Assembly (NCBI GenBank): GCA_964387845.1
Contig: CAYLXA010000004.1
Coordinates: 128,001-192,000 of the forward strand
Direction of reading: 5' to 3'
Length of the DNA: 64,000 bases
From: an uncultured bacterium
Lineage (GTDB): Bacteria > Omnitrophota > Omnitrophia > Omnitrophales > Abzuiibacteriaceae
Part shown: piece by piece, positions 44,137 to 49,622 of the stretch
Position numbering within the stretch: the first letter of the stretch is position 1
Layout: the number at the start of each line of letters is the position of its first letter
Program-made: the position numbers and the translations under genes
The notes under the pieces: model-generated
What the model was told of the DNA's origin: nothing
Database searches by the model: none
The model's input: only the letters and a program-made list of their open reading frames with translations

Positions 44137-45509
44137 GCAGCCGCAATGAGTTCGCCGATCAAAGTTTTATTCCGGACGGATCTGATTTGGATGTGCTGCC
44201 GTGTGCCGGCCAGCTCTGATGCGCCGTTAAAAACCACGTGGCGCTCGTGCTGGGTCTGGCCAATCATCTGGAGTTCGTCTTTTCGGCTGATGTGACTGAC
44301 CAGTACGCTTTCTCGGGACCCGATCAGCTGCTCGTAATGCTTTTTCGTGATCTCATCCTGAATTGCCAGTAATTCGACATTTCGCTTATTTTTAATATCT
44401 TTCGGCACGTCATCTCTCAATTTATAAGCCGGGGTTCCGGGGCGCGGTGAATATTGAAAAATAAAAGCGCCGTCAAACTCGATTTCACGCACTGCGCGTT
44501 TGGTGGCTTCAAAATCTTCTTCCGTTTCACCGCAAAAGCCGACAATAATGTCGGTTGTGAGTGAAATATCGGGAACAAGTTCGCGAAAGCGGTCGACTTT
44601 GGCTTTAAATTCCGCGTACCGGTGAAGCCGTTTCATTCGTTTTAAAATTGCGTCCGAACCCGATTGCAGGGGAAGGTGAAAGCGTCTAGAAACTTTTTTG
44701 CAGTCGCGGATGGCTTGAAACAGTTCTTCGTGCGCATCTTCCGGATGCGACGTTGTGAATGAAATCAATTCGATTCCTTCAATATCATTCAGCATGCGGA
44801 GAAGTTCGGGAAAAGCCGGACTGTTCGGCAAATCCTTGCCGTATGAATTCACGTTTTGTCCCAGGAGCGTAATTTGTTTATAGCCTTGTTCGGCAAGCCG
44901 GACCGCTTCTCTATAAACCTCCCGAGCTGGCATCGATACTTCAGGCCCGCGCGTTGTTGGGACTATGCAGTAAGTGCAAACTTTGTTGCATCCTGTCATG
45001 ATCGGAAGCCAGGCATTGATTCCATCGCCATATTTGGTGAGCTCCGAATATTCAATCCCCAGACCTTCTTTTTTGATGCGCGCGGTTTGTTGGCGGGTTT
45101 TTCGGACAGTTTCCACGATTTCCGGAAGCTCTTTAATATTCCGAGTTCCGCAGAGAAAATCAAGATGAGGAAATTTTTTAAATAACTTTTCTTTATGTTC
45201 TTCCGCCATGCAGCCCATGAGGCCGACGATCAGATCGGGTTTTTGTTCGGCTTTAAAATCGCGGAGCTCATAGAGATGGCCATAAACGCGGGTTTCCGCA
45301 TGTTCGCGAACCGAGCAGGTATTTAATATGAAGACATCCGAATCTTGATAGGGGTTGGCAGTTTCTTTAATGATCTGAAAGCCGGCATTCTCAAGCGTGC
45401 CCAAGGCGACGTCAGAATCATAAAAGTTCATCTGACATCCGAAGGTCTTAATAAACACGACTGGTTTTTTATCAGTAGATGGCCGTGTTTCTTGCTTTTC
45501 CTGTTCCAA
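44133..45509 (-). CDS. miaB: tRNA-2-methylthio-N6-dimethylallyladenosine synthase
   Basis: An MTTase N-terminal cluster (FGCQMN), a radical-SAM CxxxCxxC (CTYC) and a TRAM domain. It uses an apparent TTG start at 45507-45509 with a strong SD (aaggagg) 5 nt upstream, and that start lies inside the recombinase ORF. Confidence 0.85.
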   Translation of the reverse strand: MEQEKQETRPSTDKKPVVFIKTFGCQMNFYDSDVALGTLENAGFQIIKETANPYQDSDVFILNTCSVREHAETRVYGHLYELRDFKAEQKPDLIVGLMGCMAEEHKEKLFKKFPHLDFLCGTRNIKELPEIVETVRKTRQQTARIKKEGLGIEYSELTKYGDGINAWLPIMTGCNKVCTYCIVPTTRGPEVSMPAREVYREAVRLAEQGYKQITLLGQNVNSYGKDLPNSPAFPELLRMLNDIEGIELISFTTSHPEDAHEELFQAIRDCKKVSRRFHLPLQSGSDAILKRMKRLHRYAEFKAKVDRFRELVPDISLTTDIIVGFCGETEEDFEATKRAVREIEFDGAFIFQYSPRPGTPAYKLRDDVPKDIKNKRNVELLAIQDEITKKHYEQLIGSRESVLVSHISRKDELQMIGQTQHERHVVFNGASELAGTRQHIQIRSVRNKTLIGELIAAA

Positions 45510-47149
45510 GTTTCCTCCTTTCTGCCGGTTTTCTCGTTTGCTCTTCGGTTGGCTAACGCATTTTGATACATGGAGCGAAAAGGTTCATAAAGTTCAAACT
45601 TTTCGATTGATCGATTTTCCACTGGAAGCCTTTTAAAAATGAGCATTAAGAATTCTTTTCGGCTGGCCGGATGTAGATTTTCTTTTACAGATTGCGTAGA
45701 TTTTACGATTTCTTGCGCTTTTTTGACATATTCTTTGGACTTTTCTTTTTCGACTAGCCGGAGTTCCATGCGTTCGACCTTAATGCGAAGTTCACCCTCC
45801 TCATTGCGCAGTTTTTGCATTTTTTGCTTGAAGATGCCGCGATTAATGGTTCCTTCCAAATAAACATCCGTGAGGTCGCTTTGTTTTTGAAGGTATGCTT
45901 GCAAATCTTTTCGCATTGCTTCAAGTTCGTACGTTGCTTCACCAGTCGCTCTATTTCGATATTGGTCTGCTACAAGATTCCGAAGCCGTTCCGTAGTAAC
46001 TTCCTTAGCCGAAAAAAGGACATCCAGAACTTCAAAAACCTGTGATTCCAATATCTCTGACCGCACGTCACCGTTGTGGCATTTGATATTGTAAAGGGCT
46101 CTGCCAGAACAGCGGTAATAAGGTCTCTTTTCGCCGGTTCTGTGATTTTTAACATTGGAAATGCCATTGTAGCGGTTTCCGCACTTGGCGCAGGTGATTA
46201 CACCGGATAGCGGATAGTCGCGGACGCGTCGACGCACAAATCGTCCTTTTCGATTTTGGTCTAAGAGTGCTTGAACTTGATAAAAAATTTCTTCAGAAAC
46301 AATCGCCCAATGATTTCCAGTGGCTTCGATGATTTTGGACGGGTCATTCTTGACATAGCGATAACCATGAAGCGTTTTTTGTTTTCGGTCGTAATGGTGA
46401 GCATTCCAAACTAGTTTTCCAATGTAAATCTTATTTCGAAGCATCTTCCGAACGAGAGAACTATTGAACAAACCGCCTGATCGAGTTTTAATTTCACGTT
46501 TGTAAAGTTCACCGCCAATTTTCTGTGTGGAAAGGCCTGAAAGATACTTCTCGAAGATTTCTTTGACGAGTTTTGCTTCTTCTTCAACGATTTCAAGACG
46601 TTTTGTCGTTTTATCGTAATGGTAACCGTAAGGTGCATAACGGGCGCCTTGCCAATGTCCTTCTTGCACGCCGCGGACCATTCCTGGGAACACGCGTTCA
46701 ATAATCCGGTTTCGCTCAAATTCGGCAAAACTTCCAAGCTGTTGAAGCATGAGTTTGCCGGAGCTTGAGGTAGTATCATAGGGCTCTGTTGCGGATTTAA
46801 ATTCAATATCAAGATTTTCGAGTTCATCCAAGAGGTTCAAAAGGTCTTTCAGACGGCGGCTAAAACGGTCTAGTTTATAAACTAAAACTAAATCAAACTT
46901 CCTTGCTCTCGCGTCTTCCAAAAGTTGATTGAGAGCAGGGCGGTCAAGTGAATAACCGCTATAACCATCGTCTTCGTAAATTTTATTCTTGTCGTCCAGA
47001 AAATGAATTTGCCAATCTTGCTTCTTAGAAAATTCGATAAGAGAATCTCGCTGGATATCCAGAGAATAGCCTTCCCGCGCCTGATCTTCTGTGCTCACGC
47101 GCGTGTAAAGGGCTACTTGGATTTGTTTTTTATCGCTTGAATTGTTCAT
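45428..47149 (-). CDS. large serine recombinase (serine integrase)
   Basis: An N-terminal resolvase catalytic domain (YTRVSTEDQ, with the nucleophile Ser), a recombinase domain, a Cys-rich zinc-ribbon region (CAKCG...YRCSGR...CHN) and a coiled-coil C-terminal region. 573 aa. Confidence 0.9.
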   Translation of the reverse strand: MNNSSDKKQIQVALYTRVSTEDQAREGYSLDIQRDSLIEFSKKQDWQIHFLDDKNKIYEDDGYSGYSLDRPALNQLLEDARARKFDLVLVYKLDRFSRRLKDLLNLLDELENLDIEFKSATEPYDTTSSSGKLMLQQLGSFAEFERNRIIERVFPGMVRGVQEGHWQGARYAPYGYHYDKTTKRLEIVEEEAKLVKEIFEKYLSGLSTQKIGGELYKREIKTRSGGLFNSSLVRKMLRNKIYIGKLVWNAHHYDRKQKTLHGYRYVKNDPSKIIEATGNHWAIVSEEIFYQVQALLDQNRKGRFVRRRVRDYPLSGVITCAKCGNRYNGISNVKNHRTGEKRPYYRCSGRALYNIKCHNGDVRSEILESQVFEVLDVLFSAKEVTTERLRNLVADQYRNRATGEATYELEAMRKDLQAYLQKQSDLTDVYLEGTINRGIFKQKMQKLRNEEGELRIKVERMELRLVEKEKSKEYVKKAQEIVKSTQSVKENLHPASRKEFLMLIFKRLPVENRSIEKFELYEPFRSMYQNALANRRANEKTGRKEETWNRKSKKHGHLLIKNQSCLLRPSDVR

Positions 47150-47425: not shown

Positions 47426-48379
47426 TTAATCATTGGAATCGTCATCCCCCTGACCGTCAATTGGGCTCATATTGGCATCGACTTCTTCTTCGCCCCCGCT
47501 GGAATATGGGTCTAGAAAATCGTCGTGATCTTCGTCGGAGTTATGGGGCTTCGGAATCGAAATATACGGCTTGCTCGGTTTCCACTTATTTTTGTCCTTA
47601 GGAACAAAGAAATCCTCAAACCACGCAGGATCAATTTCCTTCAAATCTGTCTTGGTGGATTCTCTAATCAATTGTTTCACGGGAAGCCCGTCTGAACCTG
47701 AAAAGAAAACTGCATCTTTTCTATCCTTCATCAAAGCCTCAAACGTGATGAAGAAAAAACGGTTTGTGGGGTCATGCTTCTTTCTCACTCTTGAAATAAA
47801 CGACTCCGAGCGGCAGATATAAAGCACCGCGTCAAACTTATCGCTGTCATCGTATTGGCTAAAAATACTCTTGTATCTGGCCAGTCTTTTTTCTGTCCGT
47901 TCGTATTCAATGGCATAGAGAGCCTTTTGAGTCATCAAAAACGCATCCGGCACAGAGCCTCTGGGCCTGAATGAGCGGATCACACGTTCTGGAAACCAAG
48001 TCTCAACCCCCAATTCGTAAAAGAGAACCCGGATGTCGGTTAACGCCTTGTCATGCCCAAAATTAGCAAATGCTCTATCCCTTGATATCTTGAGCGCGTA
48101 TTTTGAACCCTGAGACCTGAGCAGTAAAAACGATTTCTGGGTTGGAATATAGATATCCCTTGCTTCGGTGTAGACCTTTTTCTTGGCAATGTATCCCGCT
48201 TTCATCAATTTCAAGATTCTTCTATAACAAGCTCTCTTAGGATTGCAATCTTCAAAGAACACCCTCCCAATCTGATCCAACGTCATAAACTTCATGTGGA
48301 CTAACCACATCAAGAGCTCACTATCTCTCGAATTTAACTGCATGATAAAAATACTCCTTTCTAAAAGAATTACTTTCAC
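47426..48379 (-). CDS. replication-relaxation family protein (plasmid Rep-like)
   Basis: A 317-aa protein with an N-terminal winged-helix-like region and an acidic C-terminal tail. The family assignment is by resemblance, at moderate confidence. It has an apparent GTG start, it is co-oriented with the recombinase, and the repeat-rich non-coding DNA is on its upstream side. Confidence 0.5.
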   Translation of the reverse strand: MKVILLERSIFIMQLNSRDSELLMWLVHMKFMTLDQIGRVFFEDCNPKRACYRRILKLMKAGYIAKKKVYTEARDIYIPTQKSFLLLRSQGSKYALKISRDRAFANFGHDKALTDIRVLFYELGVETWFPERVIRSFRPRGSVPDAFLMTQKALYAIEYERTEKRLARYKSIFSQYDDSDKFDAVLYICRSESFISRVRKKHDPTNRFFFITFEALMKDRKDAVFFSGSDGLPVKQLIRESTKTDLKEIDPAWFEDFFVPKDKNKWKPSKPYISIPKPHNSDEDHDDFLDPYSSGGEEEVDANMSPIDGQGDDDSND

Positions 48380-48399
48380 TGACGAGCACTAGATACAAA

Positions 48400-48472
48400 C
48401 TTTTCCCGACTACTCAATCTCACAAACTCAATCCAAAATAAACCATGGAAGAGAGTGAGTAGTCGGGAAAAG
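48400..48472. repeat. 17-bp perfect inverted repeat (cttttcccgactactca / tgagtagtcgggaaaag) with a 39-bp spacer, just upstream of the rep-relaxation gene
   Basis: Read directly from the sequence. Confidence 0.8.
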
Positions 48473-48584
48473 AAAATGCGCCGAATTGCGAGGCAGTGAA
48501 AGCGCTTACAAAAAATTGCTTAGGGAAACTCAATTTCCCAACCACTTTCCCCAACCAAAAGTGCACCAAAGAACAAAAACACCT

Positions 48585-49030
48585 CTCATTGATGTTGTGC
48601 AAAAACAGGCATTTCGTAACAAAGAAATCCAAAATTCCAGATAAAAAATATTTTTCATGCCCCTTCACCTAAAAAACCAACAAGTCCCCCCATATATAGG
48701 GGGCCAAAAATGGGGGTCTCGCAGAGATTTGCGAAAATATTTTCAATTCCACCTAAAAATAGTTTGAATCCCAACCCTCCGTTCTCAATCACCTAAAACC
48801 CTAAAAGTCCTCCCATTGATGTTGTGCAAAAACAGCACTTTCGACGACAAGAAAATTCAATTAACAGATGGAAAAATATTTTTTATACATTTTTTCTGAG
48901 ACTTTTTAGGTAATCACTTAAAAAAACAACAAGTGCTCCCTATATAAAGGTGCAAAAACAGGGTGTTTTGGTAGAAAATCACGAAAATAGTTTGATCTTC
49001 ACCTAAAATTTTAATTTTAGTCTTTTTTTC
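48585..49030. repeat. two imperfect tandem repeats of about 226 bp containing reiterated cacctaaaa motifs and a 17-bp perfect palindrome (cccccatatataggggg, 48686-48702)
   Basis: The units begin at about 48585 and 48811 (attgatgttgtgcaaaaacag at 48588 and 48814). The cacctaaaa motifs start at about 48666, 48749, 48789 and 48999. Confidence 0.7.
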
Positions 49031-49282
49031 CTGTTTTACATTTGGATCGTAATTTCTCACATAGTGTGTGGCTTAGGCCTATTTCCTCTTGAGTCTTCAC
49101 GATTTTATTGTGAAAGCTCGTGGTTTCGATACCACCAGCTCATACCACCATGTTTAATTTGCTCATTGACCTGGAAAATGATTGAAGATTGAGAGTCGTT
49201 TAACCGCAATCTGGACACCGATCAAGCTTTTGACCTATCACATGGTCAGTCACTTCGGTGCTGGACAGGTTACTAATTTTTT

Positions 49283-49471
49283 TCAACGTTTTTTGCGTTT
49301 CTTTCTCGGCTCTCTCACTGCGGCTGATTCGATCTTCTGAAGGAGATCTTCATTTTCCTGTTCAACTTGTTTCAGCGCCTCACGTAGCCTGAGCATTTCC
49401 TCGATAAGATCATCTTTGGATTCTTCTTGAAGAAAAATTCTATCCCCGTGAAATGGGTTGGCGGCCGTCAT
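49283..49471 (-). CDS. small hypothetical protein (62 aa; coiled-coil with basic C-terminal tail RKKRKKR)
   Basis: An ORF with no convincing SD. Its position at the distal end of the element suggests a small DNA-binding or partition-like protein, but this is weak. Confidence 0.3.
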   Translation of the reverse strand: MTAANPFHGDRIFLQEESKDDLIEEMLRLREALKQVEQENEDLLQKIESAAVREPRKKRKKR

Positions 49472-49573
49472 CGCAGATGTAGGGTCTTAGAAAAAGAATT
49501 AAGATGATTTGTTAGGATTCGCTAAAGGATTGCGTGCGATAAAAACCTGTTGCTTTTTATGATCAGGAGTGTT

Positions 49574-49594
49574 ATATTTCGTATAACGAAATAT
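49574..49594 (+). promoter_or_regulatory. putative MarR operator: 9-bp inverted repeat atatttcgt-ata-acgaaatat followed by ttcgtataat (-10-like) upstream of marR
   Basis: The palindrome overlaps a TATAAT-like box 20-30 nt upstream of the MarR start. Confidence 0.4.
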
Positions 49595-49622
49595 TCGTAT
49601 AATAAAATATATGGGGAGATTT

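Follow-up and report, generated by a model that had tools for sequence, protein, structure and literature searches.

The closest described counterpart of the locus reported here is the oriT2-TraX system of the Enterococcus faecalis plasmid pAD1, in which the relaxase TraX, a protein with an N-terminal winged helix that forms no covalent intermediate, binds five direct repeats 70-120 bp from the nick site nic; direct repeats beside the hairpin of a MOB_C-type origin of transfer (oriT) are already known from this source (PMC12857230). The corresponding Pfam family, Replic_Relax (PF13814), has a PD-(D/E)XK fold (PMC3424549) and is equated with the MOB_C relaxase class in the cited portion of a study of streptococcal integrative and mobilizable elements (IMEs; Coluzzi et al. 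2017, PMC5357655). Elements that pair a site-specific recombinase with a Replic_Relax-type relaxase and depend on a helper for the mating pore are likewise already known from that portion of the same study. We examined an array of direct repeats upstream of a diverged gene of this superfamily in a 64 kb window, i.e. the whole stretch analysed (64,000 nt; positions 128,001 to 192,000 of contig CAYLXA010000004.1, assembly GCA_964387845.1), from an uncultured bacterium of the candidate phylum Omnitrophica. The array lies in an integrative and probably mobilizable element of ~4 kb, and our preferred interpretation, on which we stand evenly poised, is that it belongs to a MOB_C-type oriT/control region as an accessory array for protein binding.

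The array and the gene that it precedes are located as follows (window coordinates here and throughout).

47426..48343, minus strand: gene for a 305-aa winged-helix + PD-(D/E)XK protein, distantly related to Replic_Relax/MOB_C
48583..49035, minus strand: whole array, comprising partial u0, u1, u2, u3 and the terminal A-box u4

Placed 200-650 nt upstream of the Replic_Relax-like gene (ATG at 48343), the array lies where an initial annotation, made from the sequence alone, had put a repeat region relative to a Rep-like gene. That annotation had described two tandem 226-bp repeats. A direct repeat is indeed present (48576-48802 and 48803-49035, with a start-to-start offset of 227 nt), but each 227-nt unit is made up of two basic units. 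With the originally proposed borders, global alignment of the two copies gave 155 matches in 256 columns (60.5%; 81.6% of ungapped columns; z = 10.4 relative to shuffles), and with the borders moved slightly the 227-nt repeats were 63.7% identical (z = 12.7), values just above the 60% self-alignment identity that had been set as the lower limit for the repeat. The 22-mer CATTGATGTTGTGCAAAAACAG occurs exactly twice, with no other copy in the window even at three mismatches. Four copies of CACCTAAAA were found where 0.44 were expected, all on the plus strand and all within 48666-49008; the reported reiteration of this cacctaaaa motif in both units is thus borne out by four exact copies, though their spread is uneven, the earlier unit 1 holding three and the earlier unit 2 a single exact one, besides a degenerate copy (CACTTAAAA, 48915-48923) and another that is inverted (TTTTAGGTA, 48904-48912). 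The array is absent from the output of Tandem Repeats Finder because indels separate the copies.

The unit structure was read in the sense direction of the relaxase-like gene (minus strand), by comparison with the related element L004. Read in this way, the array consists of 4 to 5 basic units of 104-126 nt with the box order A, B, C. Each unit runs from the A-box cTGTTTTTGCAC through a variable slot of ~15 nt, which contains a TA-rich hexamer (TATATA, TATAGT or ATCAAT), to a G-rich run (GGGAGG/GGGGGG), the motif ACTTgTTGG, the B-box TTTTAGGTG (the reverse complement of cacctaaaa), the palindromic C-box AAAAATATTTTT, and a short hairpin of variable sequence that immediately precedes the next A-box. 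A nucleotide profile of the A-box (nhmmer) gave four matches in the window, with scores of 12-24 bits and spacings of 126, 126 and 101 nt. The units and their boxes are listed below.

49035-48962, minus strand: partial unit u0
48961-48836, minus strand: unit u1, 126 nt
48835-48714, minus strand: unit u2, 122 nt
48713-48609, minus strand: unit u3, 105 nt
48608-~48583, minus strand: terminal A-box u4
48950..48961, minus strand: A-box of u1, cTGTTTTTGCAC followed by cTTTATATAGGGAGCAC
48824-48835, 48702-48713 and 48597-48608, minus strand: A-boxes of u2, u3 (variant ccATTTTTGGCC) and u4
48666..48674, 48750-48758, 48790-48798 and 49000-49008, minus strand: exact B-boxes TTTTAGGTG, 4 against 0.44 expected
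48915-48923: degenerate copy of the B-box
48641..48656, also ~48733-48745 and 48871-48886, no strand assigned: C-box, AT palindrome AAAAATATTTTT
48686..48703, no strand assigned: G/C-clamped (AT)n dyad CCCCCCATATATAGGGGG in the variable slot of u3
~48937-48953: degenerate copy of the dyad in u1

The dyad in u3 had been taken for a perfect 17-bp palindrome. Being of odd length, the 17-bp sequence cannot be perfect; it has 5-bp C/G arms around ATATATA (48687-48703), or can be drawn as an 18-nt hairpin with one G-T pair. The dyad is kept in u2 of the related element L024, and the other units have ACTATAGT or ATCAAT in its place. It is therefore a feature of one unit type and is not conserved across units, since the slot in the other units is non-palindromic. 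For A-tract phasing, the position spectrum of AAA/TTT was noisy, and its control, mononucleotide shuffling, is a poor one.

To place the array in context we compared related loci (numbered with the prefix L). Homologues of the 305-aa protein are rare: only 20 homologous clusters at 90% identity were found among 5.8 billion proteins, and a profile search of 1.84 billion representatives returned 15 at E <= 1e-30 and 1727 at E <= 1e-3. Those in named genomes are all from Omnitrophica, and the metagenomic contigs include groundwater samples. Around 20 related elements, mostly from Omnitrophica and groundwater metagenomes, share a recurrent module composed of a long non-coding region, the relaxase-like gene, sometimes a small open reading frame (ORF), and a large serine recombinase gene. 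Roughly half of the family carries 2-5 A-box units in a single orientation. The A-box model detected four units in the window, L004, L024 and L034, five in L008/L016, two to three in L012, two in L028 and one in L005, the boxes lying 82-145 nt apart across the family, and the B-box occurs in identical order in L004, L024 and L008/L016. In a further, array-less clade a single diverged copy of the A-box (GGACCAAATATAAGGGAGG) is found 200-330 nt upstream of a leader ORF, and the A-box sequence varies between clades of the element.

No other part of the element is as well conserved as the array. Between the window and L024 its identity reaches 80-89%, the top of the element, compared with 59-78% for the relaxase-like gene and ~50% for the recombinase gene. 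Units at equivalent positions in different elements are 77-90% identical (77% between the first units of the window and L004; 90% between u3 of the window and u2 of L024), whereas units within the window share only 58-63%, and the two unit types (the TATATA type and the ATCAAT/ACTATAGT type) keep their order where the proteins of the elements are only 60-66% identical. No copy of the A-box occurs elsewhere in the window, the motif is found in relatives solely upstream of the homologous gene, and IMG/VR gave only single chance matches to an A-box 16-mer. A dispersed repeat of the repetitive extragenic palindrome (REP) or miniature inverted-repeat transposable element (MITE) kind, which had been named as one finding that would undo the initial annotation, was rejected, the repeats being confined to a single locus in the window, element-specific and gene-linked in relatives. 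On these comparative grounds the array is functional and a genuine cis-acting feature of the element, because it is element-specific, linked to the gene in many independent elements and under purifying selection. It is not essential to the module, because about half of the relatives have no recognisable array. The contigs of L002 and L003 (the same element from other sequencing runs) end inside the array, with an A-box at position 16; since repeats are expected to break short-read assemblies, array lengths in the metagenomic relatives may be underestimated.

Another explanation is neutral tandem duplication of the upstream region with no function of its own; the differing number and length of units between relatives, their absence from some, and the recently duplicated appearance of L004 u2/u3 and the L034 units (78-84% identical) speak for it, but with an array more conserved than the adjacent coding genes and differentiated unit types in a stable order we consider it highly improbable.

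Between the array and the gene lie ~200 nt of non-coding sequence conserved in all relatives, containing two GGTTGGGGAAA repeats 13 nt apart, the second of which gives a small GGGG-N-CCCC hairpin, followed by a two-tier inverted repeat.

48523..48557, minus strand: proximal motif GGTTGGGGAAA-gt-GGTTGGGAAA with 13-nt spacing, the second copy forming the hairpin GGGAAA-N5-TTTCCC
48373..48502, no strand assigned: composite inverted repeat, candidate oriT core, with a loop of 29 nt
48373-48388 and 48487-48502: outer arms of the inverted repeat
48400-48421 and 48451-48472: inner arms of the inverted repeat

The columns of the proximal motif are among the most conserved in 20 loci. Covariation in the inverted repeat was scored on 20 non-identical loci against 500 shuffles by five measures. 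Across these loci 96% of the cells were paired, changes on both sides had occurred in 18 of the 37 pairs, and none of the 500 shuffles reached the observed value of any measure; when the partner columns were slid, pairing fell to 37-49%. The inner helix is 99.4% paired, with 9 of its 18 pairs covarying (G-C/A-T, T-A/C-G/A-T) and 45 cells changed on both sides, and shows zero one-sided changes of the G-U type. This absence of G-U changes seems to suit an RNA stem less well than a constraint acting on the two strands of the DNA. Folded as single-stranded DNA, 48373-48502 gives z = -5.7.

A comparable anatomy is found in two plasmid systems. Upstream of the traX homologue of pTEF1 (NC_004669), a relative of pAD1, there are outer arms of 18 nt, inner arms of 25 nt and a 27-nt loop (fold z = -12.5), with 5-6 direct repeats of 12 nt on the side away from the gene, and in pCCELLA01, a second and unrelated MOB_C plasmid, there are outer arms of 14 nt and inner arms of 19 nt with 3-4 direct repeats at a 24-25-nt period (the whole arrangement at 2677-2826 and 2876-2954 in L060). 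Because this anatomy is shared with the pTEF1 and pCCELLA01 repeats, 48373-48502 is by analogy a well-supported candidate for a MOB_C-type oriT core. It lies outside the coordinates of the initial annotation and is the feature here that looks most like an origin. A two-tier inverted repeat with direct repeats, seen in three distant lineages, is perhaps a general trait of MOB_C transfer origins.

Most relatives have an ORF of 80-120 codons that begins at a conserved GAAAGGA-N-ATG ~270 nt upstream, runs through the inverted repeat and ends in an ATGA overlapping the start of the relaxase-like gene (e.g. L031:4726-5004, L015:5732-6004, L008:2067-2366, L025 and others). Three clades read one conserved stretch (GCCTGCCTCGCA) in three different frames, and the window (48420-48668 compared), L004 and L024 are without such a leader ORF of 80-120 codons. 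That the open frame is retained and the peptide is not suggests translational coupling through the hairpin.

The protein encoded next to this region probably belongs to the same superfamily as TraX, if distantly. The 305-aa product matches Pfam Replic_Relax with 24.3 bits (E = 3.7e-5; cut-off 25.3), a family that only 4 of 20 homologues match at E <= 0.01, and the NCBIfam model MobC_subf ('MobC family replication-relaxation protein', NF041423) with 41.6 bits (E = 8.7e-11; cut-off 200); the distant proteins reached by the family profile do pass the Pfam threshold. Profile-profile alignment (hhalign) to the pTEF1 TraX homologue gave E = 3.7e-4, with the H..D, (P/S)ER, D and ExE..K..RY motifs aligned and the aligned motif positions invariant in the 20 homologues, among them D133, E146, E148 and K152. 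The secondary structure of the protein's structural model fits an alpha-beta-beta-beta-alpha-beta PD-(D/E)XK core, and an N-terminal winged-helix DNA-binding domain is present; a fold search returned no nuclease-domain neighbour among its top matches. Only two plasmid matches were found (pCCELLA01 and pFPK_1), both typed MOBC and mobilizable and both with a type IV coupling protein (T4CP) gene next after the relaxase gene. A PHROG match to 'replication initiation protein' was weak (E = 4.6e-4), and the viral collection held no relative of the protein. Taken as homology, these similarities make the 305-aa protein likely to be a peripheral, diverged clade of the Replic_Relax/MOB_C superfamily, a putative distant relative of pAD1 TraX and CloDF13 MobC. 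An identity as an iteron-binding RepA-type initiator was rejected for this winged-helix + PD-(D/E)XK, MOB_C-related protein.

Tests for other kinds of function in the array were negative. An 82-codon ORF on the minus strand (48420-48668) overlaps the region and covers u3/u4, but lies in different frames in the window, L004 and L024, so that a coding reading was rejected and the initial statement that no ORF is supported here stands, because the frame is not conserved in the closest relatives. Short peptides starting after the GGGAGG of some units were rejected in the same way, their frames differing between the same three loci. Rfam, searched at gathering and E-value thresholds, gave no match in the array, and on neither strand did the units fold more stably than shuffles (z from -2.5 to +0.9), so a structured non-coding RNA was rejected as well. 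Sigma-70 promoter-like sites numbered 3 (3.2 expected), none of them in the array, and by eye sigma-54 and extended -10 patterns do not fit it. As the array has no conserved frame, no fold above shuffles, no Rfam match and no sigma-70 site, we consider that it probably works at the level of DNA rather than of RNA or protein.

The same results bear on a reading of the units as tandem transcription units, in which the A-box and the TA-rich hexamer would form a non-canonical promoter and each unit would end at a weak hairpin and T-run, giving several RNAs of ~100 nt in addition to the relaxase mRNA, or stacked promoters of the operon. The A-box motif (TTTTTGC[AC]C, 3-6 nt, TATAGT/TATATA/TACTAT/TATAAG, then G-rich) is indeed also present in array-less relatives in 1-2 copies, 200-330 nt upstream of the ribosome-binding site of the leader ORF, which is the expected place of a promoter; a small hairpin of varying sequence precedes the T-run of each A-box, and the palindrome and one further hairpin are weakly terminator-like. 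Yet neither the scan nor inspection by eye found a correctly spaced sigma-70-type -35/-10 pair in the array, the hairpins are weak and AT-rich, and the units show neither fold nor Rfam match beyond those just given. The leader region of the array-less clade, where two subclades align poorly, has a consensus energy of -7.4 kcal/mol and no convincing consensus structure. We therefore hold this reading to be rather doubtful, and the duplicated promoters for antisense RNAs proposed in the initial annotation find no support in the promoter scan or in the folds of either strand.

Iterons of plasmids such as P1, pSC101, RK2 and F are 17-22 bp long and about 22 bp apart, are bound by WH1-WH2 RepA-type initiators and are usually accompanied by DnaA boxes. 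If the array were an iteron-type vegetative origin, the excised circle would replicate, with the Replic_Relax-like protein acting as initiator on the boxes and the AT-rich C-boxes as unwinding element. The one-orientation repeats ahead of a gene of a Pfam family with 'replication' in its name, the tracing of that annotation to plasmid pUA140, the AT-rich array (GC content 0.34), the variation of unit copy number between relatives and the weak PHROG match would all suit such an origin. At 104-126 nt, however, the units exceed the length of iterons fivefold, the protein has a PD-(D/E)XK nuclease fold in a family whose experiments concern relaxation and nicking (CloDF13 MobC, pAD1 TraX), no DnaA box at up to one mismatch occurs in the island (45.4-49.6 kb), no circular contig was found among the 37 short related contigs and half of the relatives have no array. 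A plasmid-type origin with iterons or DnaA boxes, as first proposed, thus appears unlikely. A more speculative variant, to which we give still less credence, is that the modules are a new long-period origin repeat whose sites, ~10-12 helical turns apart, would let the winged-helix nuclease or the recombinase polymerise or loop the DNA to fire the adjacent hairpin, for transfer or for rolling-circle-like replication of an excised 4 kb circle. If this were true, the Omnitrophica islands would be self-contained replicon/transfer units, driven by a nuclease family not known to initiate replication.

Our preferred interpretation, an accessory protein-binding array at a MOB_C-type origin, would work as follows, with the oriT function, the protein binding and the identity of the binder all inferred. 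The array would form the distal portion, with the repeats, of a cis-acting region of ~1 kb in the ~4 kb element, and the core of this region would be the composite inverted repeat with the two short GGTTGGGGAAA repeats adjoining. The relaxase-like nuclease would nick in the inverted repeat, by analogy with pAD1/pTEF1, and each of the 4-5 modules of 104-126 bp would be a site bound by a protein specific to the element, be it the winged-helix nuclease or another factor, so that the bound array would serve to build or regulate a nucleoprotein complex, both at the transfer origin and in the control region that precedes the relaxase-recombinase operon. The A-box is absent elsewhere in the window, and its sequence differs between clades, which is to be expected of a site read by an element-encoded factor. 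The recognition helix of the nuclease and the GGTTGGGGAAA pair are conserved family-wide and the A-box is variable, which hints that the nuclease may read the proximal GGTTGGGGAAA pair and that the recombinase, the product of the small ORF or a host factor may read the array.

Several observations weigh against this interpretation. In characterised MOB_C systems the direct repeats lie near the inverted repeat at spacings of 12-25 bp; here the period is 104-126 bp, and the array, which starts ~100 bp away and extends over 110-560 bp from the outer arm, falls outside that pattern. By analogy, the GGTTGGGGAAA repeats (48534-48557), universal in the family and present as two GGTTGGG(G)AAA copies 13 nt apart and ~100-120 bp from the loop of the inverted repeat, about where a TraX site would be expected, would be a better analogue of the TraX binding site than the array, which for that reason possibly binds something else. 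In both Pfam and NCBIfam the 305-aa protein stays below the curated cut-off, a recognisable array is missing from about half of the relatives, and the element has no gene for a T4CP or a type IV secretion system, with no helper element identified.

The remaining features of the element and its surroundings are these.

45428..47149, minus strand: gene for a large serine recombinase (573 aa) with Resolvase, Recombinase and Zn_ribbon_recom domains
49036..49600, minus strand: distal low-GC stretch with a 62-codon ORF (49283-49471), the border of the element lying somewhere within

The island has a GC content of 0.34-0.46, against 0.46-0.55 in the flanks, and the element probably extends from about 45.43 to 49.5 kb. 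Over its last ~27 codons (45428-45509) the recombinase ORF overlaps the 5' part of the miaB coding region, and this overlap marks one end of the element. The opposite flank carries the host marR gene and a resistance-nodulation-division (RND) efflux operon. In five relatives the recombinase ORF ends within the 3' end of a tRNA-His(gtg) gene (L012:9106-9125, L024:7884-7889, L031:8055-8062, L017 and L032), from which it follows that these are small integrated elements with the recombinase at one edge. Because the 3' end of the recombinase ORF runs into host sequence, the attachment-site (att) crossover probably falls within the final codons of that gene, and the encoded recombinase C-terminus would then differ between the integrated and the excised form. 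No duplicated tRNA-His fragment was found in the relatives, none of the 37 short related contigs has the terminal overlaps of a circular form, and neither the distal 575 nt nor the 62-codon ORF has a homologue in any related locus. Rfam matches in the window are tRNA genes alone, none of them inside the island.

Three further observations concern the surroundings and the relatives. Immediately before the start of marR, at 49578-49610, a tandem repeat of 16 nt (TTCGTATAACAAAATA x 2.1) lies within a near-palindrome and is probably the MarR operator of the host efflux operon, outside the element. DnaA-box-like 9-mers (TTATCCACA, up to one mismatch) number 21 in the whole window against 10.5 expected, a count reached by 0 of 100 shuffles; they are scattered, with none in the island. 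In the L008-L011 lineage (3631-6935 in L008) genes for helix-turn-helix (HTH), Fic and AbiEi/nucleotidyltransferase proteins follow the relaxase-like gene and replace the recombinase gene, so some members of the family bear toxin-antitoxin or defence-like cargo.

Taken together, these loci define a family of very small integrative elements in Omnitrophica, marked by genes for a serine recombinase and a MOB_C-like nuclease beside ~1 kb of non-coding DNA that is conserved. Compared with the known systems, what is new is that the protein clade is divergent, that the host belongs to Omnitrophica, that the element is very small and that its composite units have a long period, unlike the 12-25-nt repeats of characterised systems. 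Omnitrophica is a candidate phylum known here only from uncultured metagenome-assembled genomes and one single-cell genome, in which horizontal transfer is hard to study experimentally. The locus offers a candidate oriT backed by strong comparative support, and an array conserved more strongly than the proteins is an unusually clear target for finding what a MOB_C-type relaxosome or regulator recognises.

The known systems differ in how far they resemble this locus. The comparison with pAD1 oriT2 is drawn from a 2025 review (PMC12857230) and from our analysis of pTEF1. As in pAD1/pTEF1, a winged helix is joined to a PD-(D/E)XK nuclease with aligned motifs, and as in pTEF1 the gene is preceded by a non-coding region in which a two-tier inverted repeat spans about 130-140 bp and direct repeats occupy its gene-distal side, and a small ORF overlaps the relaxase start. 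Part of what is given here for pAD1 oriT2 was reportedly described by Francia and Clewell in 2002. Unlike the composite modules of 104-126 nt found here, the pTEF1 repeats are 12-nt units in one tight block, and the protein described here is only about 25% identical to its pTEF1 counterpart and lies under curated family thresholds. The pAD1/pTEF1 system, moreover, belongs to a conjugative plasmid, in contrast to the integrated island described here, which measures 4 kb, encodes a serine recombinase, lacks a T4CP and resides in a candidate-phylum Omnitrophica bacterium. The 12-nt repeats of pTEF1, (C)CTTTAGG(C/T)ATAC (L058 19658-19735), and the B-box TTTTAGGTG have TTTAGG(T) in common, oriented oppositely with respect to the gene, and the resemblance may be a coincidence.

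Carboxydocella thermautotrophica pCCELLA01 and Francisella pFPK_1 (MOBC according to MOB-suite) encode the nearest plasmid homologues of the protein, and pCCELLA01 likewise has a composite inverted repeat and direct repeats upstream of its Replic_Relax gene, but its repeats have a period of 24-25 nt and are placed between the inverted repeat and the gene; both plasmids carry a VirD4/TraM-recognition T4CP gene after the relaxase gene, which is missing here. Iteron-bearing theta origins resemble the locus in their one-orientation direct repeats upstream of the gene of the presumed binder and in their AT-rich setting, and are unlike it in their 17-22-bp iterons, RepA-type initiators and DnaA boxes, none of which is found here. 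The streptococcal IMEs with a PF13814/MobC-type relaxase are, as described in the cited portion of PMC5357655, also small integrated elements with a recombinase and a Replic_Relax-type gene; they belong to another phylum, a repeat array is not mentioned in that portion, and by comparison the element described here is far smaller, with a relaxase clade that is highly diverged.

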